From NCBI GenBank assembly GCA_965178125.1, contig OZ237743.1, forward strand, positions 682,001 through 746,000: 64,000 nucleotides of DNA, written 5' to 3'. Made by a program: the position numbers and the translations under genes. The notes under the pieces are model-generated. The model did no database searches. It was given only the letters and a program-made list of their open reading frames with translations, and was not told the origin of the DNA. Of this stretch, positions 1 to 64,000 are shown in pieces (position 1 is the first letter of the stretch; the number at the start of each line of letters is the position of its first letter). Origin of the DNA: Bilabrum cf. latius (lineage: Eukaryota).

Positions 1-1
1 T

Positions 2-277
2 AAAATTATTGAGAATCTACCGCCTACACACGATGTCTATATCCAGACAGAAATTGATGGAGTTTTGACCGTAATTTTTACAAACAGTGATTAGGTAAAA
101 GAAATCACCAATCAATTAAAAAAAGACAGTAGAGAGAAGCTATTATATCTCAAATATTCAACCTATAAATGTATTATATAGACGAGGAATAAGTATAGAG
201 ATGATGACATTGTACTTCATTATTTGGCTGTTTGTCTATTAGAAAAGAAACCCATTCAATTATATAAGGCAAGATAA
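2..277 (+). CDS. Partial hypothetical viral protein (5' end outside window)
   Basis: Frame open from 2 to TAA at 275-277 when two in-frame TAG are read as Gln. Confidence 0.55.
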
Positions 278-328
278 TCATTTTATTATTTATTTATACA
301 TATTAAATAAATATATGACCTGTGAATG

Positions 329-441
329 ATACTTTCCAAAGTAGGTTCATACTTTTCGAAGTTGGTTCACACTTTTCAAAGTAGGTTCATACTTTCCGAA
401 GTTGGTTCATACTTTTCAAAGTAGGTTCATACTTTCCAAAG
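329..441. repeat. Tandem repeat, ~5.6 x 20 bp (ATACTTTYCRAAGTWGGTTC), alternating GTAG/GTTG variants
   Basis: Directly visible head-to-tail 20-bp units with no spacers. Confidence 0.95.
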
Positions 442-2451: not shown

Positions 2452-2529
2452 TTACATTTTATAATTTAAACTTTATAATATGTGTTTAAAATGGCTTAAA
2501 AATATATTAAATATAATATACTATAGGAA

Positions 2530-4029
2530 ATGATAAATTACGAAAATGTGTTAAATCAATTAAATATATGCTTTGGTAAAAAGTATGATAACCCCATTCA
2601 ATCCGTGAAGTATCTAGAAAAGGTATTTAACGGTAAGCCCATAACTACAAAGAACCTTTATAAACTTGTTTCAGGTCTAAAAATGGATATAGAGATTAGA
2701 GAGAAAGACGATATAAAGGTCTATTATCTAAGTAGGAAAAAAGAGAGTTTTAAAAGGGTTTGTTTAGAATATAAAGATGGTTCATTTAAAGCCGTCTAGA
2801 GGATGAAACCTTTATTTGTGCGGTGCCATAAATCTATGGTTGTTAAATTAACCGATAAAGCCGAAATAATTGAAAAAGATAAATATAGAGTTGAGAGCCT
2901 GACCGATTATCATTCAAAGAAATATTATCTTCATTACACCATTCACGAATGCCCAGAGGATGAAGATATCAAAGAATGGAGCTTAAGGCTGAGTATAGCA
3001 AGTGATGAATTACACGACGAGAACCCATCATTAGATGTAATGAAATATGGAATCAGACAAACAGCCCTTCATTTCTTTACAATGTTTAATATGATGATAG
3101 ATAGCCCACCAGATATAACCCCAGAGGAAGCGGTATTTATTGAAGGTTCAACGCGTGGCGGGATTCAATATCACAAGAAGGGACAATATGAGGAGTTTAT
3201 CACCTACGATATAAATAGTCATTACCCCGCCATTATGTCATCTAATTCACTACTACCATATGGAAATCCTATTTATAAAACAATTGATAATAAATATATA
3301 AATAATAAAAACGAAATAGGGATTTATAAATGTAAGGTAAGCCGTGGAAAATGCGACCCGAATATCTTTCAAATGATGAAGGTATTTGAAAATGAATTTA
3401 CTTATTATGTCTTTACAGATATGAATATGTTTGTTAAATATGGTTGTGAGATAGAGATGTCAAGCGACGAATTTAATTTTATGACCTATGATAAATATAT
3501 CAAAAGTGAAACACTTTTTAAATCCTATGTCTCAATGTTCTACAAATTAAAAAGCAAATCATATCTAGCAAAAGAAATATTAAATTCATTATGGGGTAAA
3601 TTATGTAGTTCCTCTAAAAAGACAATTACATCAAAAGACGATAAAAAAATAAATATAGATAAATTTGATATTGACCGTGTAGAAATGGATAATGACGGAG
3701 AATTTATTTATCATTTGAAACATAAAGTACCCTTTAAATATAGCTGGGGAAAATTGAAACCTTTTATTCTGGCATATGGAAGACAACGATTGATGAAGAA
3801 AGTGAATAAGAACAACGCTAAACATATTATACGAATTCACACCGACAGTATCACATTTAACAAAAGATTAAATTTTAAAGTAGGTAAAGAATTAGGTGAA
3901 TATAAAAAAGAATAGATTAATGAAGAAGGATAGAAATTAATTATCCACGGATAGAATGATTTAATGGTCGTAAATGAAAAAGAAGAAATTATATCAAGGA
4001 AAGGAAAAAAAGGCGGTTTAATGCTTTGA
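2530..4029 (+). CDS. Family B DNA polymerase-like protein, 499 aa, no recognisable exonuclease domain
   Basis: Track ORFs 2530-2799 and 2803-3915 share a frame and join via TAG, ending at TGA4029. Motifs YDINSHYP, KEILNSLWGK and IHTDSI. Confidence 0.85.
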
Positions 4030-4223
4030 ATTAAATATTTATTAATTATATAATATATGATTAATATTATTAGTAATATCTTTGTTTAGTATGCTATTAA
4101 GAAGGCATTAAAGAAGGTAAAAAATAAATTAATGAAGAATCCAAATAATAAAAGACTCTATGAAGAATATAGAAAGAAAACGGCTCACGCAATTAAAAAA
4201 TTATCATTTTATTAATTATATAG

Positions 4224-4931
4224 ATGAATGATAATATACCTAATTATGTTAATAGTCCTAAATTATGGCGTCAGGCAGTTGAGAAAGTAAATAGAACGTA
4301 TAAAAAGCCTTCAGCTTATCGTTCATTAGCATATTTTGCTCGTTATAAAAAACTAGGGGGGACATATGATAAAATTAAATTAAATGAAGCATAGAAAAAT
4401 TTAAGAAGGTGGAAATTAGAGGATTGGAAGAATTAGAAGGGAGAAAAGGGATATTAGGAAAAAGGAGATATATATAGACCCACTAAAAGAATAAATAAAG
4501 AGACCCCTTTAACCTTTGGAGAATTAGACACGGAAGAAATAGAGGAAGCAATGAAGGAAAAATTTAATAACGGACACGTGAAATCATTTAGACCTAAACC
4601 AGTTTTTAATTTATATAAATCAACTAAATCAAATAAAAAATATATGATTAAAGTAGTTCAAGGTAATAATATTCTGTTTACTGTTCATTTTGGTGGAATT
4701 AAGAATGATGGTACCCCTTATATGGACTTTATACAATATTATAATAAAGATGGAGAGAAGGAAGCAAACCGTAAAAAGAAAAATTATATTAAAAGACATT
4801 CAATAAATGAAGACTTTAAAGACTATAAATCCCCCGCTTTTTGGTCTAGGTTTGTATTATGGAATGAACCAACATTAAAAGATAGCTTTATGGACGCCGT
4901 AGATAGAGCTAAAAAATTAATGAAAGTTTAA
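4224..4931 (+). CDS. Two-domain viral protein, 235 aa: N-terminal KPSAYRS..YKKLGG..RW..EDW..YRPTKRI domain plus C-terminal Tlr6F/DUF5754-like domain
   Basis: ATG4224 is in frame with track ORF 4551-4931 through 3 TAG; motifs KKYMIKV, VHFG, YIKRH and SPAFWSRFVLW recalled from NCLDV/PLV/virophage proteins. Confidence 0.7.
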
Positions 4932-4984
4932 TATTATAGGTTTGATATAAGTTTTAGTTTTTCTCTTATTTATATATACAAAAA

Positions 4985-5506
4985 ATGAGCTTAGCAAGAT
5001 TATCGCAACCTAATGATATATCTATTCAATGTAAGAATGTCGCAACTGGTAGATTAGATAGTAGTGGTCTATATGTAAATGCTGTTGTGAATAGTAGTGA
5101 TGTAGTTGTTAGCAACGCAGGATTACATCTTGACAGTAAGGGTATTTCTTACATCACTTCGGGTCAAGCTTTACGATTCGGTGCCAATACCGCATCTGCT
5201 GGTTTAGTTATGAGTTTTGATGAAGACGGTCACGAATGTGATTTAACCGTAAAAGGTGAAGTAGTAGCAAATAACACCGTAGCGCATAAAGGAAGGGTAA
5301 ATTGGAGTGGTGGAGGTGCTACTGAATTTGCTAGTGTTCCGGGTATGACTTCTAGTGATTTGGTTTTTATTACTACAATCACCCCCGCCAGTGAGCCGGT
5401 TGAATTTTCCCACGTAGTAGCAGGAACCGATGGATTTACGATTCATTTAACGGGTGGTAATTCCTCTAATGATTGGTCGGCTAATTGGATGGTTATTAAA
5501 GGTTGA
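4985..5506 (+). CDS. Putative fibre/spike-like virion protein, 173 aa; homologue of 23740-24270
   Basis: Beta-rich, Gly/Ser/Thr-rich; shares LRFG.N..SAG, W.GG, PG....D.V.ITT and VVAGTD.FT.HL.G with 23740-24270. Confidence 0.65.
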   Translation: MSLARLSQPNDISIQCKNVATGRLDSSGLYVNAVVNSSDVVVSNAGLHLDSKGISYITSGQALRFGANTASAGLVMSFDEDGHECDLTVKGEVVANNTVAHKGRVNWSGGGATEFASVPGMTSSDLVFITTITPASEPVEFSHVVAGTDGFTIHLTGGNSSNDWSANWMVIKG

Positions 5507-5909: not shown

Positions 5910-8687
5910 TTAAATATTCTAATCTAATCGTTCGTTGGATTCCTTGTATACGTCCTTCATTTCGGGATACTAATATTTATAAACTTCATCAAATAATTCT
6001 TTCTCCTTGGTGAATTTAATTCTTAATTCTCTATCCTTTTTATCCTTTTTATTTCCCATACTCCAAGAGGTTTTAATATTTCCAAATAACTACTTATATA
6101 ATTTTACTATTGCCCCGTGTAATTCACTATCGGTTTCTATTGGCTTCTATAATCTCGCCCCGCTTACTTCTACATATCTTTTACCCATTTCTATATATTT
6201 AATGGATTTCTCATTTTTACGTGTATAACTTAAATCAAATTTATTCAATTTAAGCGTCTATAACATCTCCTACAATATGATTATTTTATTCTTTGTACTT
6301 TTTGCTTTCTCATCCTTAAAATCCTTTCTATCCTTTAATTCTGTCATTAGTTTATATTTATCTTTTCTCTTGAAATTAGCATAATTAAAATAATTCATTA
6401 ATTTGTAATTATCAATTAATAACATTTTAATATCCTCCGTTATGGCTGTCTCTGGTAGCCCTAAAATTTCAATTCTTCTTTTTATATGGTCGTTCTCTAC
6501 ATCAAATGAATCAATCTTTTCTTGTAGTATCTCCATTGTCGCCTCTTTCATCTGCTATTTATTCATTCGTTGTGGTAATTCCTTATCCACCTATACATCG
6601 GCACCCCTGTTTTTAAGAATAAGCTATAAATGAATATATTTATTTGTTTCGTATGTATCACATTTGAAATTATATAATTTCTTGAGTGGTAAATAAACCT
6701 TATATGATGCCTCTATCATTGCTTTATGGGCTATCTCTTCATCATCTTCTCCCTCAAAAATATCAATGTCAATATCATTCTCCTACATTATCCTTTTTTC
6801 GTATTTTTCTAATTTAGTATATAAATCTGTCTATGCGTTAATTTCCATATTTAAGGTCGTCTATACCTCCTTTAAATTCTCATATCTTGGATAAATGGAT
6901 TTTACATCTTCAAAATATATATTCATATATTCGGGATTTCTACATCTTGCCAGTTGCTACATCATCTACGGCGGTAGAATCGTTTTTCCTTTATATAATC
7001 CATACACTGGGCGCTCCATTACACTATCTAATCCGTAAATGACTTTAGGACTAAATATAATTTTATCATATTTATCTAAGCTCACATCCTCATCAGGTAA
7101 TAAATCACTAGTAATTAATTTAACGTCCTCTATACCATCTTTACATAACATTTTATAAAATGTATCTGCGTTCTTCTTGCTATCACACGCCAGTATAAAT
7201 TTATCTTCACTTTTTAATTTATCGTAAAATTTCTATTGGTCTTTTTCAAAATATACTTTTACGTCCTTAAAATGCTTATATTTATTCTTAATGAAGCTAA
7301 ATTCTACTCCAGCACATTTTAAAAATTTCATCGCTATCTGGGATATGTCAGCATCTACAGCAATAAACTATTTACACGTCCTTATCATTTTTAAAATAAT
7401 AAATAATACAAGAACCCTATTATTATTCATCGTGGTAGAACTTAATATATGCTCTATAATGCTATTGAATTCATCCAAAAATACGATGTATTTAGAAAAA
7501 TCATAATTCACAATTTGGGGGATACTTTCCGGCGTAATAATAAGAGACTATCCAAAATCAAAAGTTTTATTCTGGTAGAACTCACATTTAATATCTTCAT
7601 TTAAAAAGCTCTCGTATTGCTCTGTGCCTAAACATACACGGGATACAATGGATAAGAACGGCGTTTGAACCTGTTTAATGTATTTCTTAAATGCTGTTGT
7701 TTTACCTGTTCCTGTATCACTTTTTACCACATAATTATATTCATATTTAAAAAATCGTTCGGGCTTCTCTATATCATCTAATTTAGGTTTATTAATTTCT
7801 GTATACCCGTTAATATTCTCGTCATAAGGACGATAATAACACTTTGAAATATACTTATCTTTCACAAATGCCTTTAAACTTTTATCATTCTAAATTATTG
7901 AATTAACTAAATTAAAGGTTTTTAACTTATCAAAATAATGGATAGAGTTCCACACCTTGTTATTTTTGTGGTAGTCGTATTTATTGCCCTTCTTGCTCCA
8001 CTCCTACCACTCCTTCTTAAATCCTAAATATTTACTCGCTAGGGTTGCTTTATACCAATCACTATAATTATTTAAATATTTCTTATCTAGTCTATTTAAT
8101 ATAATTGACCAGTCTTTACCATTTAAAATGAATTTCATCATACAGTTATTCACATCTTGATTATCAATTTTTGATATCCTTTTACTCGCCCCTTTTACGT
8201 TGGATTTCTTAGAGGATTTAATAATATACTTTTCATAAAATTTATAAAGCTCCTTAGGACATTTTTTTATTTCTACATTATTAATAACTTCGTATTTTGA
8301 CCCATTTATGCCACTTGGTGGTGCCACTACATAAGCCCCATCATTCCTAATATCAACGTCAATATCTCTATTGGTGGTAGTTAATATATTCTAATCATAT
8401 TTAAAATATAGATGATACCCTCCACCCGCTGTTTTAACCGTGAATGTGTTGAACCGCTTCACAAAGTCATCTGAAAATTTCTTGATGAATAAATGCTCCT
8501 TCTTATCGCTCCATTTATATGAATCAATATCAAACACGGTTATATTATTAATTTCTCCGGTGATAATAGCCATATTCTGATTATTAAATCGTTTAGGCTC
8601 GGGTTTGGTGAGATATCGCCAGCTTTTAACATCAGGTATTTTTTGATTGTGCTTGATGGGGAAACTAACGAGGTTTTTATTATTCAT
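5910..8687 (-). CDS. Prim-pol (bifunctional primase/polymerase) + PriCT-like + SF2 origin-binding-type helicase, 925 aa
   Basis: Five track ORFs lie in one frame joined by at least 18 TAG, ending at TAA5910. Motifs TGEINNITVFDID, TAGGGYHLYF, DTGTGKTT, VFLDEFNS, DADIS and QQLARCR. Confidence 0.88.
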
Positions 8688-8846
8688 TTTCTATATATAT
8701 TATTAGAAATATATTTTTAAACTATTTTAAACGCCATATTTAATTATAGAGGGCTTAAAGGGGCTATAATAATTAATGAAGGTAAAAGGTGATTTTTGCC
8801 ATTTAGCCCTAAAAAATAGATTGTGATATGAATGGTGTATTTTAAC

Positions 8847-9035
8847 ACCTTCTAAAGTGATGGAACTATTTTTAAAAATTATCTAAAGGTCCCATACCAC
8901 CTTCACAAGAGGCCCTACATCCACGTTTTGCTAGAAATACTATATAATTATACGCAATTTGTGGATATAGCCATCGTATAGATTTTAATATAGCGGTTAT
9001 ATTAAAATATTTTATTAAATTCTAGCCCGTTTATT
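8847..9035. repeat. Dispersed repeat copy 2
   Basis: Matches 1216-1400 and 11678-11812. Confidence 0.85.
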
Positions 9036-11478: not shown

Positions 11479-11677
11479 ATCTATTGTTTTAGGCTGGTGA
11501 AGTGATCAGCTGGCCTACAGCGTCATCGTTCCGGGGTGTATTGAACTGTGGCGCTTGTGGTATTGCGATGACGAGTGTAGCAAGTTGCTGTAGCGCGTTT
11601 GTTCCATTTGTGAAGGTATAAGCGAGGATAAGGGGGTATAATGAAGGTAGTTTAGAAGGTTGAATAATGGAGTCCCA

Positions 11678-11812
11678 TAAAGTGATGGAACTTTTGGCTA
11701 GAAAATGGCTAGAGTCCCAGAACACCTTCACAAGAGGGCTACATCCACGTTTTGCTAAATAATACATATACTAATACGCAATTTGTGGATATGGTCATCG
11801 TATAGAGTTTTA
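11678..11812. repeat. Dispersed repeat copy 3
   Basis: Matches 1216-1400 and 8847-9035. Confidence 0.85.
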
Positions 11813-16456: not shown

Positions 16457-16544
16457 TTTGAGTTTGAGTTTCTTACAATAGGAAACCCAGAAACAAATGA
16501 TGTTTTTGCAGAAAACATTGCTCGCTGCTGTGACTAGTGATACT

Positions 16545-18332: not shown

Positions 18333-18358
18333 ATAATATGATCAATGAAATTTAACTG

Positions 18359-49200: not shown

Positions 49201-52200
49201 TTCAGGATGAGGACATCTGCAGGGCAACTTGCATCGTGCCAGAGGGCCAGGGACTTACAGCAGGCGCATTTATGCGCGTGTTTGGAGATTTCAGGCAGCC
49301 CATCTACACGAGTCTGTTCTACGGTGCGCCCATGATCGAGCGAATCTCGGTCACGGACCTGTCCATCCCATCCGCGGTGACCACACAAACCTACGACTTG
49401 CAGGACTTGAACTCCGGCCCGGTGCAATTGCCAACCACGGACGGACGCGTCACCATTGAGGGCAAGAACTTCGGCCGATACCCTGTCCTGAACATTGTCG
49501 GTACCCCACTTGGTGAAAACATCATTGACTGGTACTCATTCGGAGCATACAACGCCCAGCGCTCCCACACGGAGCTAATCTTTGACTCGCCGAAGGGCCA
49601 GGGCTACATGTATCCGCTGCAGCTGCTGGTCGGTGACCAGAGCATCGAGGACGGCGGAAATCAGCGGCTAAACTCCAGCTTCAAGCCACCAGTGGTGACA
49701 GAGTTCGAGCAGTTCCCACCTACTCGCGGCGGCGTCTGGGTCAACATTACCGGGGCCAACTTTGGTCAGTTCGCCGACGCTGCCTCTCTCGGCGGCATGG
49801 GCAGCATGCCCGGCGAGCCCGAGTTCCAGATCAGCCTCGGAAAGCCTGACGCGGTAGGTTACACCCCTTGCGACCGAACCATCCGCACCAACCACACGCA
49901 CATGGCGTGCCTCGTGCCAGAGGGCTCCGGTAGCGAGCTCGAAGTGCAGGTTCTGGTGGCAGGACAGACGGGCACACACGTGAGCGGGGACACGTTTAGC
50001 TACGCGCAGCCGCGCGTGCTCCGTGCTGAACTATACCGCGACGACGAGCTGGTCCAGGCAGCGGTGGCGGGTGGCGGGACTGAGCCGTCCTCTGCTGTCA
50101 GCACCGACGGGTTGTGGCGGAGCTCTGCGACTGCGCCCATGGACTGGAGTACGGTGCTGCAGGGCGCGGCATCCATCAGGGAGCTGGACACTTCGCAGCT
50201 CGTGCTCAAGGCGCCGACTACTGGTGCGCTCGAGGTGGTGCTGCGTGGCAGCAATTTTGGGCCCGCCGCCGGCCGCACCGTGCACTGTGTATTCGTGTCG
50301 TATGCCTCGAGGTACGTTTTCGGCCCGCTGCCCGTCTGCGACGGTCTCGAGTCGGTGTCAGGCGAGGGTGAGATTTACAACGATGCGACCTACGTTGGCA
50401 ACCGCATCAGGCAGCTCGCGCTCTCCCTTGGTCTCGAAGATCCAGCGAGCGTGCTTGCTGCCATCAACCGGGAGCGGAATGTCACTGGACTTGCCATGCT
50501 GACCCTGGGAGACCTGAGCTACACGGTGCCTGCTGACGCCCCCGTGTCTCGTCGACTCAACCCCGTGGGCCTGGATCTCACGAAGGGCGTAGAGGAAGAC
50601 AGAGAGGACATCGAGCTGCTGGGCAAGGACGACGACATGGACGTGGTAGATCAGTTCCTCGACAGGGAGGACGTCTTTGGAGATGGCGATGAGGACCTTG
50701 GTGGCGACGACGACGGCTCTGGGGATGTGCAGACGGCACCCTATGACGGAACGCATGCACCCAAGACCTCTTCAGACGACCCAACGTTCCCGGCATCGCA
50801 CCTGTACAAGTGGGACCACGAAGAGATCCGTTTCCGTCTGCCTTCAGGATCCGGCCACTGGATCGTGAACCTCGACGTGCGCGGCAACCGGCTGCCATCC
50901 ACCGACGACGTCAGCATCCAGTACGAGGCACCTGACTTGCAGCATCTCGTCAAGCTCGAATAGGAAATCAACACCGACGGCGAGTCCCCTGTCCTCATTC
51001 GGGGCCAAAACTTCGGGCCCACGGAGCTGCCCTCGCTGGAGGCCGTGCTTGAGAACCACATCCGCATCTTGGGCTCTCTCCCCGTGCCCGATGTGCAGCG
51101 CCCCGCGTTCGCGCACATGCGCCTCATGTGGAACGGCAAGTGCATCTCGGAGGCCTTCGAGGCAAACCCCGAGGCTGCCGTTCTGGACAACCCCGTGCAG
51201 GACGCGCGCATCTTGGGGATCCCCATGGCTGTGCGGCCGCCTGGGTTCGAGGACTGCGAGTCTCTGATGACCCGACACGGGCACCGCGCCGTAGCCCTTA
51301 GCTCCCCGCCTGGAGTCGGCACCAACAAGACGCTGTCCATGGAGATTCTAGGCCGTGGCACCACTTACGTGGCACGTGGCGCTGTAAGGCGCTTCAACCA
51401 CTCGAGGCCAGAGGCCCAGTTCACCGAGCCCAGCATCATCTATGTCGGACCCGAGGAAGAGGAAGGCGCAATTATGCGAATCATGGGCAAGAACTTTGGC
51501 CTGAAGCAGTTCGAAGACGAGTGGACGGACGAAGAGAAGGTTCTCTCCATCGAGGTTGGCGGGTTCGAGTGCTCTGATGCTAACCGCATCACGGGGGCGC
51601 CGAACAGGGTGCAGGACGGAGCAGACGTGCTCCAGTGCAGGGTGGCGAGGCAGTCCGTGGGCAGCAAGAACATGAGCATTCAGATTGTTGGATAGACCGG
51701 GCTGACAGACCTGAACGACACGATCGCCCCGCTGATCGCGTGCCGCGCCAACTCGTTCGGATACCCCGGCGAGTTCTGCCTGCCGTGCCCCGAGGGTGCC
51801 TTCTGCAACGGGTTCAGAGACTATGTTCACACGTACCCTAGGCCTAACTCCAACTACTTCAATCTCAACAGCACGATGCTCGACGTGTGCCCAAGCGCCG
51901 CCAAGATCGGCTTTCGGGACGTGTGCATCGTCGGCTGCGACCCGCCTGAGGCTTGCGCTGGAGATAACTACTGTGCGCGTGGCTACGCATCCAAGGCTCC
52001 GATGTTCAGGTGCGGCTCTTGCGCTGATGGGTTCTACCGGAGAGCTGGAGAGTGCGCAAAGTGTCCTGACAGCCCCGCGGTGCTTATCGTTGGATTCGTC
52101 GTGGCAGCCATCTGTGCGGCCCTGTTTGGACTCGAGCTGAACCGAAGGAACGTGAACATCGCATTCATCTCCATCGGCGTGGATTACTTCCAGGTGCTAG

Positions 52201-54083
52201 CCATGTTTGCCAACTCTCGCGTCAGCTGGCCGGCGTTCGTCAAGGATATTTTCCATATCATGTCCGCCTTCAACCTCAACCTCGAAATCACGGCCCCGGA
52301 GTGCACCGTGCCCGATCTGGGATACCAGACCAAGTGGATGGTCATCCAGTCGCTGCCCATCGCAGCCGCACTCATCGCCGCCGCTGCCTTCCTCGTGCAG
52401 CTGGTCTACAAGGCATGCATCGCAGGGTAGAAGGGCAGGCAGAACCTCTACGCCCATGGCAACAAGCTTGTAGCTGGATGGGTAATCATGATGTACGTGC
52501 TCTACCTGTACATCACCAGAACGGTTCTGGACGTGTTCAACTGCGGACCAGTCGTCCCAGACGATGGCAAAAAGTACCTGCAGGTCGTGTTTGAGGAGTG
52601 CGGGGTCAAGGGCGGCACCCAGATGAAGCTTCTCGGATTGGCATGGGTAGCTATGTTCGTCTATGTCATCGGCTACCCGCTTGCCATCGGGTATGTCCTG
52701 TGGAACAACTGGTTTGAGATCATGTACGACCAGATCCTGCGGGCCAAAGGCTGGGGTTACGACGCGAACTCGTCCACGAAGCGAGTGCTTTAGACGAGAG
52801 AGCGTTTCAACAAGCTATACTACGCCTTCAGGCCGGATACATTCTACTGGATGCTGGTGATCGTAGGGCGCAAGTTCTGCATTGCCTTCTGCTCGCTCAT
52901 GTTCTCCCGCAACCCCGCCTTCCAGCTGGCAATGAGCCTTCTCGTCATGTTCGCGGCGTTTACGCTCCAAGTCAAGGTGGAGCCGTACATGTCCCCTGCT
53001 GAGATGCCGCTGACCCTCGCGCACCATGAGCGCGAGGCCGCGCGCGGCGCTGGCAAGACCGTGCACTGGCGCATCATGAACTCCATCAAGGAGCAAGTCA
53101 TCCCCAAGCGGCCTCACAAGTACGATCGAGGGATCTCGTGGCAGGACGCGGGCTTGCTCAACCAGCACGCGACTCTTTTCCTAGTCAACTACAACACGAT
53201 CGAGGCGGTACTGCTTGCGTGCGCCGTGCTGGTCAACCTGGCCGGCATCATGTTCGAGTCTGACCGTTTCACCGGCAAGCAGTTCCAGCGGTAGAGCGAC
53301 ACCATTGCGGGGCTGACCATGTTTATCATCATTAGTTCCATCGTGTACTTCTTCACTGTGTTTGTGCTGGAAGTGTACAGTCTCTGGCTCAAGTACGACG
53401 AGGACCAGGCGGTCAAGCAGAACGCCTCCAAGAAGAAGTCCATGCGAAAGATCTCTGACGGCAAGAAGAGGAAGAATATCGGGCGAAAGACCAACGCGTG
53501 TCTCGTGTTCTGCGGCATCCAGGCCCAGAAGAACGAGGACCCTGATGACGAGAATGACATTGAGCTCGGGGCCATGACGGGCACTGACATCGACTCATAC
53601 ACGCAATCCGTGGATCAGTCGGACAACCCCCTGATGCTGCTGCAGCAAGAAAAGAGGGGAGAAAAGGACCTCCTCGGCGTGGGCGAGGAGGAGCTCAGCA
53701 CGATCTTCAGGCCAAGCAGCATGCCCAACTCCCAGCAGTGGAGCCTGGCGTGCACCCGGTACAGGCAGGTGCTCGAGTACGCCAAACGGGTCAACAGCCA
53801 GCTGGAAGGGGCCAAGAGGGACGTCGCCCGGGCAGAGCGAAGCGCCAACAATGACGGCATCGCAGTTGGCAGGATGCTATAGAAGAGGACGTTTGCCGTT
53901 AAAACTTCCGTGACTCCGGGAAGTTATGCAGAGGCCGAGGCGCGGGCCGCCGCCATGGGCAGCTCAGGCGCAGCTGGAGGATAGACAGAAAAGAAACGAT
54001 TCGCGGGGCTGGGGAGTTTCGCTAAGCAGTCGAGCAGGCGAGGCCTTGGCTCTGCAGGAAGCAGGCGGGGTGGCCGCTTCTGA
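43278..54083 (+). CDS. Host giant membrane protein, 3601 aa: signal peptide, LamG-like, Sushi, cadherin, many IPT/TIG repeats, Cys-rich region, multi-pass TM domain
   Basis: Ten track ORFs in one frame; 12 in-frame TAG, no TAA/TGA until TGA54083. Motifs LDHE/LDYE, DLNDAP and repeated GxNFG. Confidence 0.88.
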
Positions 54084-54397
54084 GTCGTCGCACCACCGTA
54101 GCACTGCATCTGCCAGTCGTTGCAACATTGCTGCAGCACTGGCGCAGGCTACAGTGATACGGTGGTGAGTAACCTATAAAATTTGCATGTCCTTTGTTTG
54201 CTATTCCAAAATGATTTCATGATCGAAACGATGCTCCTGTCGCAACTTGGTGCAGCCAGCAATAGGCCTAGGCCCCTAGGTCCAGCCCCGCCCATTCGGA
54301 ATCTGAATCCCTGATCAGGCAGCTGGTGACAGGCACACCATTATCCACTGATCCAGATTAGTGTAGAGGGATGTATCGCCGAGATAAGCACAACAGC

Positions 54398-57300
54398 TCA
54401 CATGCGCTCTATGGGGTCTAGCCCGATCAGCCTGAATCCCTCACGCAGAACCATGCGGGCCGCCGCAACAAGCGCGATACGGGACCGGGCCACTGGCGGC
54501 GCGCTCCCCTTGACCCTGCAGTCCCTGTTAAAATCTGAAATGGCCCCGGTGAGCTCGTAGACGAAGCGGCACAGGTGGTGCGGCATCAGCGTGTCGGCAG
54601 CCACGGCGACAACCTCGGGCCACCGCACGATGTACTTGCCCAGCTTGCGCTCGCTTACGTGCTCCAGGTGCATCCTCGGGTTCCTGATCGCGTCATCCAC
54701 AAACTCATCGCCGAGTTCCTGGCGCAGTTTGCGCAGGATCGAGTTAAGGCGTACCTGCTGGTACTGCAGGTAGACAGCAGTGTCTCCGTTCTACGACAGC
54801 ATGCTGCCGTACGAGAACTGATAGTCGGTCTTCCTGTTGTTCTTTAGGTCAAAGTACTTGACACCGGAGTACCCCAGCTTCTCGGCAGCCTCCCTGCGGC
54901 TGCCATCGTCCTCGATCTGCGAGTAGTGCACGGCCTCGCCCTCGGCAGCAGGGGCAGGGGCAGCCTTCGCCTCTGCCGCCTCGAGTGCAGATCGCTCCGC
55001 CTCGGTCAGGTCGCTGATCAGCTCGCCCTCGTCCGTGCGCTTCCCGCGCACCTCCAAATCGGCACCTGTTCCAGGCGCGGCTCTCATGGCGAGTTCCCTG
55101 TAGGTCCTGTCCCTTGCCTCGTCTAGGAGGTCCACCAGGCGGACGGTGGAGCCGCTCCTCGTCTTGAAGCGCTTCCCGTCGCTGCCCAGCACCACGCCGA
55201 AATCGACGTGGTCGATTCGCACGCTCTTGGGGCCATCCCTTGGGGCCCAGCCCATCTTGCGCGCGCCTTCGAAGCACAGCTGCAGGTGCAGCGCCTGACC
55301 GGCATCGATGACGTACACGAGCCAGTCACACTCGAGCTCCTGCGTGCGATGCTTGAGTGCAGCTAGGTCGGTGCTGTCATACCCGTAGCCTCCGTCCCTC
55401 TTGCGCACGATCAAAGGCACATTAAAGCCCTCGATGTGGGCGAGCTTGGACTTGTCGTCGGTGGTCAGCATGCCCGCCGCCTCCATCTCGTCCACCACGC
55501 CAGGCAGCATGGGGTTGTAGAAGCTCTCCCCGCGGAGCTCCAGGTCGGGGTGCACGCCTAGCCTGCGGTACACCGCATCGAACATGCGCGAGGAGGCCTC
55601 GACGATCCTCTTCCAAAGCGATACGTTGGTGGCATCGCCACCCTGCAGGGCCACGACCTCGTCGTGGGCGCGATCCACGAACCACCCGCCCGTCTCGCCG
55701 CCCTCTGGCGTGCCAGCGGCAGGCGGAGCCGTGCCTGGGCCAGCCGCGGTCTTGGCCTTTCCACTCACATCGAAGCGAGCCTTGGCGGCCTTGTACAGCT
55801 TGGTGAGATCGGCAATGTCCGGCAGCTTGGTCTTGTAGTCCGGGTGCTCGTCCTTGAGGTGAGCGATCAGCATGCCGAATTGGGTGCCCCAGTCGCCCAC
55901 GTGGTTGATGCGATGCACCTCGTGCCCGCAGTACTCTAACATACGTGCGATCGAGTCTCCCAGGATGGTGGAGCGAAGATGACCCACGTGCATCTCCTTG
56001 GCGACGTTAGGACTGCTGTAGTCCACGGCAACCTTCCTCTTCCGCTCCACCTTGGGCGGGAGCGGGGCCCCAGCTGCAAGCACTGCGCTGATTCGCTCGG
56101 CCACGTGCTCTTTTGACAGATAGATGTTGATGAATCCGGGACCGCTTACCTCGACCTTGGCAATGGCGTTGCACTCAGGCATGGCGTCCACGACGCGCTG
56201 GGCAAGCCCTGGGGGACCGCGAAGGGCCGGAGCGATACTTTTCGCCACCTCCTGCTGTTCGGGAGTGTACGACGGCGCGGCAGGCTCGACAGCCGGACTG
56301 GATCCGGCACCTGATGCCGCTCCGCCCTTGCCCGCCTTTCCCTTGCCGCCCTTGCCTCCGCTCTTGCCCCCACCCTTGGCTCCGCTCGCGCTCTTGATGA
56401 GCCCAAAGACCTACTGGCAGACGTCTGTCTGGTAGTCGTGCTTCATGCTGGCCTTGGGAGCAGGGCCAGCTACCGCGTTGACAGCGTCAACAGTCAGGCC
56501 CAAACCACCGCCAGAGACTGGCTTCAGCAGCTGAGGGAGGGCAGCATGCACGGCCGAGGTCATGATGCTGCCGAGTACCGCATCGATGGGGTCATCCACG
56601 GTCACTTCCACGCGGGGAGGCTTCACGATGGGGCCTAGGTCGGCTGCTGGCGGACCGCCCTTCCCTTTGCCCTTGCCCTTGTCCTTGCCGCCCTTCTTGC
56701 CCTTCTCTTTCTTCCCACTCGATGCCCCTCCGGCGGCAGCACCCCCAGCACCGGGTGCAGACCCGCCAGTCGCCACAGAGGATGCCTTCTTCCAAGCCGT
56801 CTGAAACCATTCTTCCCCAGAAACAGCAGCGGTTAGTGCCCTGACACGCGGAGCAAACTCGGCGGGAAGCACTCCCGCGGCCAGTGCAGGGTAGACTGTG
56901 GCTGCAATCGCTACGCCCGCAGCATTCACAGCAACGGCCGGACCTGCTGCACCAGCCCCCGAGGTTGCCGGCGACTGTCCCTGCAGTCCACTAGAAGCGT
57001 CCGCAAGGGCAGCATCTGCGTCCTGGAGGGTCATCCACAAGTCTGCAAACGCCCTGCGAGCGCCTGTCTCTGCCTCTGTCCTGGCCTTCTTGGCAGCGGG
57101 CTCGTCGGTACTGCCGCCCTTGCTGGCCTGGGCCTGGTACAGACCCAGGGGGAAGCGTCCCCGCGGGGCTCCAATGCTCACTCCTTCAATGGAAGACGGT
57201 GCAATCTGAACGGCGTTCACGTCGGCGGCGTTGAGCGGGAATTTGATCCCGCCAAACTTGCCGGGATTCTCGGCGGCTTCCAGCACGGCGGCAACAGCCG

Positions 57301-57719
57301 GTTCGAGCCTTGAAGCATCCGCCTCCAGCCATTGGCTCTGCTTGAGGCCAGCAATTGATGTGGCGGCAGGGGCGGCTTGCGCAAATGCTGCAAAATATCG
57401 CACTGCGGCATCTGAGCCAGACAGAGGGATGGCTTCGCCTGCCACGCAAAGCTACACGAGGTTTGATGTCTCTGCGACATTCAGAAAGACAGTGTCAGAG
57501 CGTTGGTCTTACTGAGATCAAAATATTAGTGTTGCAAGTATATCTTAAATGCTGCATGAAAGTTCGCTATATGAGCAACTCACGGCTAGGTGCGCCTGCT
57601 ACATCCACGGGCGAGCCAGCGAAACCTGCTACGGCGAGAACCTTCGCGGCCTGCCGGGCAGCACGACCACCTGGTGCCACATTAAGTACAGACGAAGTCC
57701 GCTTTGGTGCAGATGACAT
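54398..57719 (-). CDS. RARS: Host arginyl-tRNA synthetase with N-terminal GST-like extension; join(57719-57584, 57471-54398), 1069 aa
   Basis: VDYSSPNVAKEMHVGHLRST, GDWGTQFG, KRFKTRSG and terminal ERM; GTGAG..GCAG intron; 3 in-frame TAG. Confidence 0.92.
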
Positions 57720-58584
57720 GCTGCAATTCCTCGAGATGCTAACTTTCACGCCAGATATGCTACGGATGCCTGTATGAATGAGCCGACCCAGTCTTGTGTA
57801 AGAACTTGTTCGACTTGCAATCATACACGGTTTTAAATCAACCCCTTTCAATCCAAGGGCTGTGCAATCCTCTAGTTTTGTGAATGTGTGCCAAATCGGG
57901 AGTGTGGAGAACCCTATGGAAAATCGGAGTGATCGGAAGTAGTAACGTGGCATTTCATTGCCCCGGGAATGAGATCACAGCCAAATAAATATGGATCGAT
58001 TGAACGAAAGAATCTGGACACTGGTTTAGGCTGTTATTGAAAACGGATCTCGTGCTGATGAGGTAGCGTCTCGGACAATCAGAAGACGGGCTCTTGATCT
58101 GATTGCGCATTTCACGGCCCCAGTAGATATGCCCCTGTTCACTCCCCAGAATGTGCAGTATTCCGACTTGTTTGTTGGTCTTTGCATTTTAGATGAGGCA
58201 GAGGGGTGGCGTGCCAATGGTCCGGCATCTGATCGGGGGGCAATCTATGAATGTGGATCCCTGTGCAGGTCATTCCCGCGCTAGTTCGAGCGATTCTAGC
58301 TGTCTTCCCCAACTTGTAAACCATCTTTGGTGGAGCTAATGCTGAGACGCCTTGTCGTGCTCTTCGGCGAAGCTAAGTTGTGGGCCGATCTGTGTGTGCC
58401 TGCAATACTGCCTTTGGATTTAGCCAAGGGCGCATCTATCGAATCATAGACGCATTCTGAGTGTGTTGTCGCACCACTTGGTGCCGTAATTACTGGTACT
58501 GCTCTGTCAAATTTATTATGGGCTGATGGAAGCGTTGGTAAACTGCCAGATACTCTCCACACCCGCCGATGCGGTGCTGGTCCC

Positions 58585-61434
58585 ATGCCAACTGCGGCAG
58601 CTGAAACTATAGCAGGCACGGTGGAATACGACGAATTTGAATCATCGGGTGGAACAGATTACAGTACGGACGAAGCCGAGATGCAAGCCAGGGTGTTCGA
58701 AGATTCGGCTTGCATGGCTCATGGGCGGCCAGTTAGACGGCCACTGGCTGCCCACGGCCATGGTCAAACCTCAGTTGCGCCAGGGGGCAAGAGGGCCATG
58801 GGTGCCGCTTCAGGGACCGGAGACACATCGTCTGTGCGACCCGATGAAGCACCCAATAGTACACCCGAGCCTGGCAAGGCAGCTGTTGGCACCCACGCCG
58901 CACCAGGAGCGCATCATGATGGAATTACGTCTGGAATCATGGCTCTTCGCAAGGCATGCAGCTCGGGTGAATGCCGGAGGTGCGTCTTGCGAGCCCCTGG
59001 CATGCTCGCCAACCAGTTGCTTGGGTAGTGGGGGAGCATCGCGGTTGGGGGCATGTCCAGAAACAAGGCGCCTTGGCATGACTTATGCTCCAGCCATATC
59101 CGGGGCCTGTTCAGAAGGCTTCAGAGGTACAGACAATTGCAGGAAGTAAAATTGGACGCGCCTGCAAGAAGTGGGTCAGAGGTAGCTTAGGAGCATGACT
59201 CCGGCGCGGGCGGCATCGAAGGTGCAGATACAGGTCATCACAGCAGCGGGCCCACGGTGGCCCCTTTGCAAGATACTACTCACGATTCAAATTTGCCGCC
59301 ATTCAAGAATGAGGCAGAGTACAAGGAAGCACAGGAGTACCTACAGACAGTTGTCCGCATCGCATCTGCCCCTGAATTATTGAACAGACTAGTACAGGTA
59401 GAGGAGGACGGCGTGGAGTTCGAATTTGTTCGATAGATTGGACAATTGGAGGAAGAAATGGCAGCGGTGGTTGGCGCGCTCAATGATACCATTATCACTT
59501 CCGGCTCTGATGTTCCTGAGGCACCAGTGGGAAGTCACGCGGCGAGCGGCGCATCTAGCCTACTTCACGTCGAAGCCAGAACGGACAGCAGCGACGGCGG
59601 TGGCGGTATTCTGGCAGATGCGCTTGAGACCTGCGGCGATGTGCCGCCGTGGCGCCTGAGAGGCCTACCCGAAGTTGCTGTAACTCAGCAAGAACCTGGC
59701 ACTCGTGGTGCTCCTGCAGCACATGAAAGTTGGGACGGCGGCATGTCGCTTGGGTTGCATGAGGCCGGGATTGGCATTGGGGTGTTTAGGGACTACTGCA
59801 CGCAGATTGGAAATCAATTTGATAGCCTCGCGATGCTCCTAGAGCCATGTACTTCTGCCATTCGTGCAGCAGGGGCGAAGGGCCGAGTAGGCCTTGATCG
59901 ATGTGTCGACATGGCCCATCTGGGAGTTCGGGTGTGCAGCCGTGCCACCGACGGTAGGCAGCTCGCTAACTTGGGGAGATTCATTGCATGTTCATTGTAC
60001 AATGGTTGCTGCATTGGCCCGGCACTGCGCTTGTCCTTGCCACTGTGCTGCGGAATGCTGGATGGCTTTAGAACGGATCGCTGGCTGGTTCGACTGGCAT
60101 CCATAGCTCGGAGCGACCTGAAGGCTGGGATCGCCGAGGACGGAACGGTCGGGCTTCCGGCGGGGGGTTCTAAAACAGACGGGGGTGAAAGCGGTCACAT
60201 AGGCAACAAGTAGGAGTCTATCGTTGCGATCGCGCGAGCTGTGTGCGACTTCATGATTGAGTGGGGCCAGGATGGAGGAGGCCCAGACGTCACGTACTGG
60301 CGAGGGAACCGGTGGATACTGGGGCAATCTCAGGATACCTGCCGCAAATTGCTCGGGGTGGATGGAGATATGGAAGGGACACAGCTGAAGGTGCCAAGCC
60401 TAGATGGGGTGCGAATGGAGCAAGCCGTGGTAGTCGCAGACCGTAGACCTGGTATCGAGCCCGAGGCCTCTCCCGGTGCGCCGGACCTCGCGATACCGGA
60501 GGTTGAAGTTCGATCTCAGCGCCAATTTGCATGCTTGGTATTGCTTCGTCTAGTTCGAGAAACGATCGGACCCTTCCCGCCCGTGCCTATTGCACTGGGT
60601 GGGACGGGCTCGGTTGAAGCGGCATTTGCTGAGTGGCGCAGTTCAGACTTGCTTGAAGTGGTTGGTTCAGCTGCAAACTCTGCGGCTGGATCACTTGCAT
60701 GTGGTTTCCAGACCGTTGTATCCGAGCCTGTCCGTGCCTTACTGCAGCCTGGTGTGCTGCAGCGAGCGCTGACCGGAGATCACGAGAACCTCGGCAATGC
60801 GGTTCAGTAGGCCTTGGATCGCGTCATTGTATCTGGAAGCTTGAGTGGCATGGGTGCGATTGGTTGGCTGATGAACAAGACGATGCCACTCTTTGGTATC
60901 AGCCAGACGGATGCATTGCAATTTGTCTACGACGGAGCGATGCAGGCCGTAAAGGCCTGCATTCAGGGGGAAGGAGAGACGGATGGTGTCATGGCAGTTG
61001 ACGTTCACAAAGCCCGACGACTGCTGCAGTTCTGGACTGGCAGCACATCACTCGGACCGTAGCTGCAGAGCGAGTGCATGAAGCTAGGCATCTCGCTGCG
61101 ACTGACAGGGCTCGATGCTGTGGCCAAGTCCATTGAGTCAAGTGGGCCCGGTGGTGCCTCGGCGGCGGCTGGTGGTAGCGTGCCAAGCGCAGCCGGGTCA
61201 AAGTCGGAGCACCCAATGCAATTTCCATGCAGATTCAAGTGCGCGCGGTACCCGACAGCATCGACTTGTGGGCTGACCCTCTCCTTGGAGGTTGAAGCGA
61301 TCGCGTGCAGTGTAGAGGAATCGGGTGCTTGCTCAAACATTGGTGACATCCCGGAGGCTGTAAGGGTGGCGTTGCAGGGGGCTGTGGACGAGGCTGTGAT
61401 TGGATAGTCGGACTCGGGATTCCTGCTTCGGTGA
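58585..61434 (+). CDS. Host hypothetical protein, ~949 aa
   Basis: Five track ORFs in one frame joined by TAG; first TGA at 61432-61434. Confidence 0.6.
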
Positions 61435-61649
61435 AGGTTGCGATCAGTACAGCCTGTTCATTCTGGTGATTGCTGTTTTGCTTGGACGTATTCGTGCGAT
61501 CTCCGCTGGTCTACAGTTCAATGCATGCCGTGCATTTCCGGCGTAATTTCCCGGACCAAGCATACCACCGCCGCGTGTACCCATTCCAGTAGATCTATGA
61601 TTCTGACCCTCAATCGGCCCCAGTCGCCCTCATCGACCGCATGACAAAC

Positions 61650-64000
61650 CTGTGCAAAGCTGCAGTAGAAGCAGCTTGCGCTGCAGCTCCGGGTGCTCCG
61701 GACCTCGTGGTTGCCGCAATCAGCCTCGCCTAATGCCGTTCATCCTCTCGGTCTCCGTTGCTCGTCCTCTTTCTCCACTCTGCATCGGCTGCGCGCCCCT
61801 GCGAGCGTTCGAGCGCTGCGAGGCTCCCGCTCGCTGTCGTCTTGGATCCGCCCCCTATGTACCTCACCGATCGAACAGAGAGCCCGGCTGCGGGGCTCGG
61901 ACGACTGGCGAGGCTGAGATCGGCGCTTGAATCGTCATCGTCCAGTGACACTCCAGGGATGAGCAGGTTGGAGTCTCGCAGCACCGCCAGCGACTTGTCT
62001 CGCATTTCCCGGTCAGCCCTTCGCTGCTTGCGACGCTCAATTGAAATCAGCTAGGAGCTTGCCGTAGCTGACCCAAGCCGTACCATCGCAGTCGCTGACT
62101 GCATGTCATTGACAGTCGTCCGTGGTCTTGGTTTCGCCGTCTCGGCTGTCCGGAATTCCGGCCTACCACCTTCAATAGAGGCCGATGCATTGAGCCTGTC
62201 GACACTCCTTACGGACAAACCTGTCGTCTGCAAAGCGGTTGTGATCTGAGAGACCCCAGAGGACTGCGCCTGGCTGACAATGTCCTAGAACGCAGGAAGG
62301 TTGAGGCGCTGCAGTACAGACGCTCCAGTCCAACCACCCGTCTCGGCATCTGCAGCACCAGACGAGGCTGCTGGAGCGCTTGGAATTGGCCAAAGCAGCC
62401 TCTCACTTGAGTCACTAGGTACCGCACCGCGGCTCCTTTGCTACTGAGAATCCGGACTAGCATCGCGCCCCAGTTGCAGGCGTGCTTCGGTGGAGTCCTC
62501 CAACGCCTGCACCCACGCCGCTGCTGGACTAAGCGATCGACCGACGGCACACGTCACCAATTGAGCCACTGACCGCACCAGCCTGTACCGAGCAGGATCT
62601 ACCTGCATGGCAATACGCAGCAGCGAGGCAGACAGCAGGACCGCCTCTTGCACGAGTGCTGGTGATTGAAGCACCGGTGTCTCCCATGACGGTGGAGGCT
62701 GCGAGACCTTCGAGGGCAAAGAAACAGGCCTCTAGGTTGGAGCAGCCGCCTTGTCGCCTGATGGCGCGTCCGATTTTCGAGCAGAGCCTATACTTGACTT
62801 CTTCATGTCGTGCGCTGCTACGTGCCTCGTATTCGGGAGTGGTGCGAGGCCGAATCGCATGCCCGTCGCTGTCGAAACGTCTCGAGGTTTTGCTCCCGGC
62901 CCGATGGTCCAGACATGCATAAATTGGCCCGCCCCGTGGCCACTCTAAGTCGAGGCACCGCTGGCCGCTGCAGCAGCATCCTCAGCAGCTTCCTTCTGTC
63001 TTTTCTGCATGGCGGCCGCAACAGGCATAATTGCGGTCGGCCGGTCATTTCCCTCCTCGTCAATACCGTCCTGCTCTAACGCATCCGCGTCATCGCCTGC
63101 ATATCCTCGATCCCCGTGTCTGTACGTGGGTCTGCACAACGTAGCGATGCACAGGGCTGCTTCCAGGCACATGCGCAGCCAGCTCGGATACCCGCTGCTA
63201 CGAACCTAAGATCTGAGCTGCTGGATAGACCGGGCTATATCATCGTTCTTGCTGGAATTCAGGGATTGTGCCAAGGATTCCGCGGTCATTCTGAACACGC
63301 CGGGCATTGTTTGCGGTCCAACGACTTGATGCTCAGGTGCGGCAAGCCGGCTCGCACCTTCAACGACCGCACCAACTAGCAAAGGCCAGAGCTCCTCTCG
63401 CGCCCTGGAGTGGAGGAAATCTCCGCCGGCTGCCTCATTGCATAGGCTGTCTGCCAAACAGTTTAGCGCGCGAATTCGAAGCTCAACATGCGCGCTGCGC
63501 TGGGCGGATGATGCAATCAGGGGCCAGGATTGTGCAAGCTGCGGTAGAAGCACAACAGGGGAGCCCCGTAGCACAATCAACGACTGTCTCAATACTTGCA
63601 GCGCAGCCGCTGCCACCCTCAGCGATGAGCTTTTGGCGCATGGTGTCGCTGAACGTATGCAAGCCAGTGCGAGGCGTCTCTCTGCCCGCTTGGCGGCAGG
63701 CAGACTGGCAGGTGAAGGCGATTCTCGCCAAACCGTGGCTGCTCGTGCAACAAACCAGTCGTGCTGCATGCACAGCCTCTGCATTGATTCATCGTCGAGC
63801 TCATACTCGTCGTCTGAATCTGGGCCACTGGGCGCCCAAGCAAGCCCAGTGGGAGCGGCAGCCAATGCAACCTGCCACGCATTCTGAATCATATCCTGGT
63901 CTGCGCACCTTGCCGGAGCAGGAGGTGGTGGCTACTTGCCATCTGATCCGGGCATCTGACTCGCAAACTCAGCTCCAGCGACCACGACTCCAAGCATCAT
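61650..64000 (-). CDS. Host TTI1-like HEAT-repeat protein, 3' part (limits approximate)
   Basis: LLPQLAQSWPLI...ALNCL...GDFLHSRAREELWPLL resembles the TTI1 C-terminal region. Confidence 0.55.

Follow-up and report, generated by a model that had tools for sequence, protein, structure and literature searches.

The DNA analyzed here, a 64,000-nucleotide (nt) stretch of Bilabrum cf. latius (GenBank assembly GCA_965178125.1, contig OZ237743.1, forward-strand positions 682,001 to 746,000; referred to below as the window), comprises AT-rich, virophage-like DNA on its left side and GC-rich host DNA on its right side. We consider it highly probable that UAG specifies glutamine (Gln) in the nuclear code of this organism while UAA and UGA still act as terminators, and that the virophage-like DNA shares this code, which is of the NCBI table 15 type. 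The same reading had been proposed for host and virus in an initial annotation made from the letters of the window, and frame structure, spliced RNA contigs and homologue columns agreed with it, supporting UAG as Gln in both compositional halves; the RNA comparison covered host genes only (43000–62000). The window most plausibly derives from the nucleus of a stramenopile allied to Cafeteria and Blastocystis, with a GC-rich genome containing few introns.

The GC content was 0.29–0.43 from base 1 to approximately 31,700, apart from an island of 0.48 at 10–12 kb, and 0.55–0.65 from approximately 31,800 rightward. Seven sequencing runs (2025, three studies) contained the stretch encoding arginyl-tRNA synthetase (ArgRS), and four of them (X1, X5, X6 and X7) were compared with the window; this was done with contigs, which drop rare variants, rather than with raw reads. 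The composition break and the host features are listed below (aa, amino acids).

31600–31800, no strand: break between viral DNA (GC 0.27–0.45) and host DNA (GC 0.57–0.63), from a GC profile in 200-nt steps.
34368–36680, minus strand: protein kinase gene in two exons with 2 TAG each; Pfam Pkinase positions 3–150 and 157–263.
36890–42979, minus strand: 2029-aa frame without Pfam family, 21 TAG, ending in TAA.
42973–43219, plus strand: 5' intron (GTGAGT...CGCAG) of the 3610-aa gene; X6 and X7 contig ends before 43220 map to 42943–42972.
43251–54083, plus strand: 3610-aa frame (3601 aa from the first ATG), repeats of the cadherin and IPT/TIG types, a membrane region of several passes at the C-terminus, 12 TAG, ending in TGA.
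54398–57471, minus strand: ArgRS exon 2 (Pfam PF00750, 2e-103; PF05746; PF03485), 3 TAG, ending in TGA.
57472–57583, minus strand: ArgRS intron of 112 nt (GTGAGT...CGCAG); the joint is present in X5, X6 and X7 contigs and the frame continues across it.
57584 to at least 57890, minus strand: ArgRS exon 1 with the start ATG, from spliced contigs.
57973–61434, plus strand: 1153-aa frame without Pfam family, 11 TAG, ending in TGA; X6 contigs cover 57997–61505 with no differences.
61610–64000, minus strand: TTI1-like gene (PF24181 just below cut-off), 8 TAG, ending in TGA, with its 5' end beyond the window.

The features of the AT-rich part, named after the best available match, were the following.

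2500–4029, plus strand: 509-aa frame, 5 TAG, ending in TGA; 26% identity over 311 aa to an open reading frame (ORF) in the viral locus L013.
5910–8699, minus strand: 929-aa primase of the Prim-Pol/PriCT type with a P-loop helicase-like region (PF09250, 6.4e-16; PF08707), ending in TAA; 21 TAG, 20 of them after the first ATG.
16618–16688, minus strand: tRNA-Met(CAU), from ARAGORN and Rfam RF00005 (48 bits), not a UAG decoder.
17262–18341, minus strand: C5 cytosine DNA methyltransferase (Pfam PF00145, 2.5e-62; alignment to M.HhaI), 4 TAG, ending in TGA.
18359–19570, minus strand: rve integrase (Pfam PF00665, 1.4e-16, 61 bits), 7 TAG, ending in TAA.
21525–22631, plus strand: P-loop ATPase, a candidate packaging ATPase (tblastn to three virophage-like loci; weak Pfam NB-ARC match), 9 TAG, ending in TAA.
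24983–26173, plus strand: fusion of a 2OG-Fe(II) oxygenase (PF12851, below cut-off) and an FkbM methyltransferase (PF05050, 4.1e-9), 9 TAG, ending in TGA.
26557–27990, minus strand: lipase-like protein with a GHSLGG motif (Pfam Lipase_3, 2.5e-4, just below cut-off), 3 TAG, ending in TAA.
28030–29841, minus strand: virophage-type major capsid protein (Pfam PF22031 MCP_V20_C, 1.9e-11, 44.1 bits against a cut-off of 27), 5 TAG, ending in TAA.

Frame structure was analyzed with stop-to-stop frames of at least 200 aa across the whole 64-kb window. The standard code yielded 30 such frames, the longest of 987 aa, while reading TAG as sense yielded 58, among them frames of 3610, 2029, 1153, 1036 and 929 aa (the 1036-aa frame being that of ArgRS, 54398–57508 on the minus strand, with its 3 TAG). 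In the controls, the longest frames of the GC-rich and AT-rich halves were 987 and 501 aa, respectively, when only TAA was read as sense, and 1029 and 371 aa when only TGA was. Counted on both strands, the AT-rich half contains 1938 TAA, 1167 TGA and 971 TAG triplets and the GC-rich half 840 TGA, 453 TAG and 209 TAA. In both halves, another stop triplet is commoner than TAG, so the long frames are not due to the freeing of the most frequent stop. Fifteen long frames together held 127 in-frame TAG (70 viral, 57 host) and not one internal TAA or TGA, and ended in TAA (six) or TGA (nine). The initial annotation had described consecutive ORF fragments in one frame, parted only by TAG; only reading TAG as sense joined them, with TAA or TGA at their ends. 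Its TAG counts for ArgRS (3) and for the largest gene (12) were also right, and the "at least 18" given for the helicase proved to be 21. The RING motif CPTCR[TAG] does stand opposite CPVCRQ in its paralogue, as had been pointed out.

Three alignments led to the same picture independently of any ORF definition. A single-frame alignment of the integrase to 145 homologues crosses 7 TAG, that of the C5 methyltransferase to M.HhaI crosses 2, and that of the 3610-aa protein to its orthologue in the metagenome locus L018 crosses 7 (1465 aligned columns, 69% identity).

Codon usage differed between the two halves. All nine viral frames carry TAG (3 to 21 each), which made up 70 of their 223 Gln codons, next to 126 CAA and 27 CAG; with TAG counted, Gln makes up 4.9% of the viral residues, compared with 3.4% without it. 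In the six host frames, TAG accounted for 57 of 402 Gln codons, next to 79 CAA and 266 CAG. The preference of the AT-rich virus for TAG over CAG is what full adaptation to the host code would look like.

Within the host DNA, the density of TAG tracked codon bias. The genes at 36890–42979 and 57973–61434, with a low GC content at third codon positions (GC3, about 0.5–0.65), carry 21 and 11 TAG, respectively, and the high-GC3 genes (about 0.8–0.9), ArgRS and the 3610-aa gene, carry 3 and 12, despite the much greater length of the latter. X6 contig depths of the host genes differed in the same direction, contig depth being a poor measure of expression.

To identify the residue inserted at UAG, TAG was translated as X, so that the alignments were unbiased as to residue. 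The homologues comprised 119 sequences and one 98% identical relative for ArgRS; 145 of 150 sequences for the integrase, after removal of four longer than 700 aa and of the window's own 84-aa fragment; 22 metagenome loci and five proteins for the 3610-aa gene; three fragments for the 2029-aa gene; and 17 viral loci. At least one homologue was aligned at 45 of the 89 TAG in 11 frames. Log-odds from a position-specific scoring matrix (PSSM), calculated column by column in a Codetta-like manner, ranked Gln first over these 45 columns, followed by Glu (−11.9 nats), Asp (−14.5), Ser (−18.4), Thr (−19.4) and Lys (−21.9), with Leu more than 25 nats below Gln. The lead over Glu was 18.3 nats in the 22 columns with at least five homologues. 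Gln was also best when the 16 host columns (by 4.3 nats over Glu) and the 29 virus columns (by 5.9 nats over Lys) were scored alone. A non-Gln residue at these columns, which the initial annotation had named as evidence that would speak against its proposal, was therefore not what best fitted the data, overall or in either subset. The scoring was calibrated on sets of 45 columns drawn at random for each amino acid; the true residue was recovered in 200 of 200 draws (Ile, 194 of 200).

Individual columns illustrate this result. Gln was found in 103 of 145 homologues at integrase column 174, within the P-Q-(S/T)-N-G motif, and in 75 of 133 non-gap rows at integrase column 10. In the 3610-aa gene, it occupied column 2815 (VAGQTG) in seven of nine, and column 3348 in eight of 12, aligned segments from related loci. 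The 52% identical integrase P0129, read by eye, has Gln opposite TAG 142, 174, 268 and 272. Of the examples of conserved Gln positions offered initially, the integrase P[TAG]TNG site, column 174, held up; two others are less convincing than had been proposed, namely the I[TAG]SDNG column, where 88 of the 145 homologues have Arg and 29 have Gln, and GG[TAG]D in the IPT repeat, where the column is variable.

Close relatives offer the best means of separating Gln from Glu. The 98% identical ArgRS P0001 reads ...DVCQQVFG... where the window has ...DVCQ[TAG]VFG... (column 366), and two relatives of the 3610-aa protein, P0127 (97%) and P0124 (75%), read AGQKGR where the window has AG[TAG]KGR (column 3060). 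Opposite the seven TAG aligned with L018, that locus has GGC, CAA, CAG, AAC, CAG, GGC and GAA, that is, Gln in three of seven. L018 has Gln opposite 29 of 49 ordinary Gln codons of the window gene, so three of seven is what a Gln codon gives at this distance. The two in-frame TAG of L018 itself stand opposite CAG and GCG in the window.

The relatives also use TAG themselves. In-frame TAG was found in relatives at about 97%, 80% and 70% identity, and several proteins called under the standard code end at such a codon: P0121, a fragment of an approximately 80% identical relative, at TAG 1001 of the 2029-aa gene, P0127 at TAG 3181 of the 3610-aa gene, and P0222 (84 aa) exactly at integrase TAG 142. 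The code is thus shared by several related organisms. In the 2029-aa gene, a single TAG column could be aligned with fragments of the approximately 80% relative, which have Pro there; a second fell in a gap. Distant relatives of the 3610-aa gene (L019, L024, L025 and others; 34–38% best-alignment identity) have ORFs of 2,596–4,135 aa without TAG.

Several observations weigh against reading UAG as Gln with UAA and UGA as the sole terminators. The last decile of the long frames contained 23 of the 127 TAG, compared with 7–15 in deciles 2–9 (the first decile held 20, some of them upstream of the first ATG), and inspection of frame ends revealed a TAG at most ten codons before the stop in four of 15 frames (5910–5921, 36890–36898, 61405–61434 and 28030–28059). 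Most TAG columns lie at variable positions, such as ArgRS column 906 (Pro 32, Leu 23, Asp 20, Thr 17), and integrase column 142 has Arg in 88 homologues versus Gln in 29. A likelihood based on pooled substitutions ranked Gln first with Glu only 1.0 nat behind; this score ignores column conservation and was therefore replaced by the column-specific log-odds. At four of the seven TAG columns, L018 carries a residue other than Gln (Gly, Asn, Gly and Glu). Further, ARAGORN and Rfam detected no tRNA with anticodon CUA in the 64-kb window, the only credible tRNA being tRNA-Met(CAU).

The observations at frame ends would fit a code of the Condylostoma or Blastocrithidia type, in which TAG means Gln inside genes but remains the terminator of part of the genes, although we regard such a situation as unlikely. 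Besides the enrichment in the last decile, it is favored by TAG codons two to three codons before TAA in the frames at 5910–8699 and 36890–42979, and by GC3 values that fade across the last approximately 200 codons of the 2029-aa frame. However, the four C-termini that can be defined by homology all use TAA or TGA. In ArgRS, TGA follows directly after ...IERM, in a region through which the alignment of 119 homologues runs (the ends of individual homologues were not inspected); the integrase stops at TAA after ...WKK, at the same end as its best homologue; the methyltransferase stops at TGA, and its alignment to M.HhaI extends to residue 349 of 359; and the 3610-aa frame stops at TGA, with the alignment to L018, which itself ends in TAA, reaching residue 3605 of 3610. 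Termination of many genes at TAG, another outcome that the initial annotation had regarded as contradicting it, was therefore not seen at these four ends. Homology between the 3610-aa gene and L018 continues past TAG 3544 and 3578, the last two of the gene, which argues against termination there.

An enrichment of TAG towards frame ends is also expected without residual termination, as these codons could be relics of former TAG stops that are now read through to a nearby backup stop, or could reflect weak constraint in protein tails. Conversely, none of the 15 long frames nor the kinase requires read-through of TAA or TGA. The kinase is the only place where these triplets interrupt a domain: Pfam positions 3–150 are encoded in 35973–36680 and positions 157–263 in 34368–35930, in one frame with two stops in between, and both in-frame stops (TAA/TGA) lie inside a canonical GTAAGG...TTGCAG intron of approximately 89 nt.

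That TAG is a sense codon for another residue, be it Glu, Leu, Lys, Ser or Tyr, appears very improbable, although codes with Glu are found in some ciliates and one with Leu in the rhizarian exLh. The narrow lead of Gln over Glu in the pooled score would be compatible with it, and some columns are rich in other residues, namely Glu at column 1247 of the 3610-aa gene (five of 12), Lys at integrase column 268 (in 56) and the aforementioned Arg at integrase column 142; capsid column 584 has Val in four of five. Against this, the column-specific log-odds separate Gln from Glu and Leu, with host and virus agreeing independently; the 97–98% identical relatives have Gln at both informative TAG columns; and TAG corresponds to CAG or CAA in both directions between L018 and the window. 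The M.HhaI residues opposite the methyltransferase TAG (Lys and Thr, at variable positions) and the two TAG columns covered by paralogues within the window (opposite Glu and Asn, at 42–50% identity) were uninformative.

The RNA contigs addressed whether TAG reaches the ribosome at all. X5, X6 and X7 contigs, which come from two studies, skip the 112-nt GT..AG intron of ArgRS and thus represent spliced RNA, although none of the runs is recorded as RNA; X1 left parts of the stretch uncovered. An 11,516-nt X6 contig spans 43220–54634 with no other letters and no gaps, an X7 contig spans 43220–54228, likewise with no other letters and no gaps, and both retain all 12 TAG of the 3610-aa gene. Across 54662–57471, X5, X6 and X7 contigs showed no differences and retained all three ArgRS TAG. 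The sole differing site listed, a T-to-C change at 54656 that is also present in X1, lies downstream of the stop of the 3610-aa gene (TGA, 54081–54083). Since spliced contigs are letter-identical to the DNA over all these TAG, their removal by splicing or editing, which the initial annotation had named as a result that would overturn it, is excluded for the 3610-aa gene and ArgRS and refuted for 43220–57471. For the window as a whole, we regard such removal as close to inconceivable: apart from the presence of short canonical introns in the host, no support for it was found, and the ArgRS intron, whose joint is the only one inside 43220–57471, contains none of the in-frame TAG counted here. 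Hardly any probability attaches either to decayed pseudogenes or assembly errors, even though assembly errors frequently account for premature stops in endogenous viral elements (PMC10120064), because all 127 interruptions are TAG and none TAA or TGA, although TAG ranks third or second in frequency among the background stop triplets, because no frameshifts occur and independent contigs of four runs agree with the window, and because an essential gene of single-copy type, ArgRS, is affected.

Two further features of the host genes were observed in these comparisons. The 3610-aa and 2029-aa genes lie head-to-head and overlap at their 5' ends, where the start-codon region of the 2029-aa gene has the 5' exon of the 3610-aa transcript on its opposite strand (window 42,943–43,260). 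In addition, contigs of all runs break or diverge at a Lys/Gly-rich low-complexity insert in the N-terminal extension of ArgRS (56,350–56,700), where many loose ends and short alternative joints suggest length variation between alleles or strains.

With regard to the host, the best named matches of its ArgRS were those of Cafeteria roenbergensis (48%) and Blastocystis (46% and 43%). In a quick maximum-likelihood tree of 37 rows, the query was sister to the Cafeteria group (SH-aLRT 98), within a clade containing Blastocystis (97), and apart from ochrophytes, haptophytes, green plants and animals. As a working placement, the host would thus be a bigyran stramenopile related to bicosoecids; it is only a working placement because it comes from a single gene with a long branch (1.31) in a quick tree. 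A full-text literature search, which covered main texts, with supplements and subscription journals outside it, found no nuclear code change in a stramenopile, and an earlier report is possible. The initial proposal of an independent change in this lineage draws on this search and on the single-gene tree, and stands to that extent. We lean, if only slightly, towards a broader interpretation in which this is the first nuclear code change in stramenopiles: an independent UAG-only-to-Gln origin in a bicosoecid-related clade of several species, to which the resident virophage-like viruses and, by implication, their giant viruses have co-adapted, with the excess of TAG before TAA or TGA representing former stops. 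If true, this excess would let one see a trace of the spread of the reassignment.

By its predicted proteins, the AT-rich DNA is virophage-like, with a capsid of the mavirus/Sputnik type and an rve integrase. The capsid matched the PDB entry 6g45 (1.8e-10), which we take to be the mavirus capsid, and Sputnik V20 (3j26, 5e-6). In IMG/VR, 17 loci encode a relative of the integrase, and tblastn of the viral frames against them matched the capsid in four, the ATPase in three and the frame at 30712–31245 in four. The capsid as single query had no match in IMG/VR, and P0129 had none in metagenome contigs. No Pfam family was assigned to the ATPase and 30712–31245 frames, both of which match ORFs in related viral loci, and the Pfam scan identified no cysteine protease among the viral frames. 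The frame at 2500–4029 was considered as a family-B DNA polymerase, which could not be confirmed, as it had no Pfam or PDB match.

The description of this DNA as an endogenous virus agrees with the GC step to host DNA within the assembly; it is the assembly that carries this part of the claim, and the left end lies beyond the window. The AT-rich DNA may consist of two tandem elements. Bases 1–17 kb, at about 30% GC, contain the primase-helicase, RING proteins, a DUF5872 protein and the tRNA-Met, and bases 17–31.7 kb, at 37–43% GC, contain the integrase, capsid and ATPase. A paralogous pair, 42% identical, is distributed across the two parts (4946–5506 and 23707–24270), as are DUF5872/DUF5754 proteins (4197–4931 and 24326–25066). 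A repeat search of the window found no inverted-repeat pair flanking 17,200–31,700.

Several smaller features were noted in the same region. The tRNA-Met(CAU) gene sits at the border of the approximately 30% and 40% GC parts and adjoins a tRNA-like 3' half (T-arm) at about 16,528–16,612, which is not a tRNA according to Rfam; together they could be the remnant of an integration site. Between 12,660 and 17,260, an AT-rich motif (...AAATCATTT...AAATGATTTAAGATTAAAATG...) occurs in five to seven copies, in either orientation and directly upstream of successive short ORFs, and looks like a shared viral promoter. A direct repeat of approximately 180 nt is present in three copies (1198–1378, 8830–9011 and 11655–11835; 67–83% identical) that bracket the primase-helicase region and the GC-richer island (0.48) at 10–12 kb. 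Near the left edge of the window, 309–461 is a tandem array of about six to seven copies of a 20-nt unit.

In mechanistic terms, UAG would have been reassigned from stop to Gln in the host nucleus, with UAA and UGA staying terminators, and the AT-rich viral DNA would be translated in the same cytoplasm as the host genes, hence in the same code. A tRNA with anticodon CUA reads UAG and not UAA, and changes in domain 1 of eRF1 weaken the recognition of UAG (PMC5304391). By analogy with other lineages using this code, decoding would depend on a dedicated tRNA-Gln of this kind, and domain 1 of eRF1 would have lost efficient UAG recognition. In the window, a relaxed ARAGORN search (ps90) returned 20 calls, none with anticodon CTA; 17 of them had an inferred intron of 25–2184 nt, most implausibly long.

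The code has practical consequences. Gene calling under the standard code has already left fragments cut at TAG in public protein sets (P0001, P0126, P0127 and P0222), and until table 15 is used for this lineage, its annotation, orthology assignments and surveys of viral elements will be in error. With TAG as 31% of its Gln codons, the virophage-like element could be expressed only in hosts with this code, alongside giant viruses translated there; given this reliance on TAG, the change of code would set a barrier to its host range and would mark an association of long standing.

Changes to nuclear codes are rare, and an uncoupling of UAG from UAA is rarer still. The cases of uncoupling described comprise one fornicate, a rhizarian, a green alga and a few ciliates (PMC11687900, PMC5304391). 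Another case, arising independently in a GC-rich stramenopile, would extend the sample beyond the AT-rich ciliates and would help to test why UAG is captured alone, including ideas such as the specificity of tRNA(CUA) and changes in eRF1. Reassignment of UAG alone to Gln has been reported for the fornicate Iotanema spirale and for the ciliates Protocruzia tuzeti, Hartmannula sinica and Trochilia petrani (PMC5304391, PMC11687900). Compared with the initial annotation, which gave Iotanema as its example, the list is longer by Protocruzia, Hartmannula and Trochilia. As in Iotanema and these ciliates, UAG stands for Gln in the window, UAA and UGA are stops, and internal UAG occurs at conserved Gln columns. 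Unlike them, the host is a GC-rich stramenopile, a lineage absent from the cases given in these two papers, and TGA is its commoner terminator (nine of 15 frames). The tRNA and eRF1 have been examined in the Iotanema and ciliate lineages, whereas the code described here is known from frames, RNA contigs and homologue columns. Further, the meanings of UAG and UAA are uncoupled, with UAA as stop, in the rhizarian exLh (UAG as Leu) and in Scotinosphaera (UAG as Ser) (PMC11687900, PMC5304391). These differ from the present case in the amino acid, Leu and Ser lying more than 25 and 18.4 nats below Gln, respectively.

Recoded phages often carry their own suppressor tRNA. The crAss-like and other code-15 phages resemble the virus described here in reading TAG as Gln (PMC9523058), but do so in hosts with the standard code, whereas the virus described here shares this reading with its host and hence conforms instead of deviating. 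A closer parallel is found in Streblomastix strix, whose endogenous polinton- and virophage-like elements follow the host code (UAA and UAG as Gln), which was read as a sign of long association (PMC10120064). The viral DNA analyzed here likewise uses the variant code of its host; Streblomastix, however, is an oxymonad with both UAR codons reassigned, while here the reassignment concerns only UAG, in a stramenopile, and the capsid belongs with those of mavirus and Sputnik. This remark on Streblomastix was all that a literature search combining virophages with alternative codes returned.

Cafeteria itself uses the standard code, and a literature search found no code change reported for it. The AT-rich DNA resembles the EMALEs of Cafeteria burkhardae, as low-GC virophage DNA with capsid and rve integrase in a high-GC genome of bicosoecid type (PMC8547959, PMC10945749, Halocafeteria preprint). 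The available text of the Halocafeteria preprint, which describes the genome of another bicosoecid at 46.8% GC, does not mention a code change. In contrast to the EMALE host, the ArgRS of the organism studied here is only 48% identical to that of Cafeteria. While a code that reassigns UAG alone to Gln was already known, and the assignment of this code is made with high confidence, what is notable here is the lineage, the GC-rich setting and the co-adaptation of a virus.

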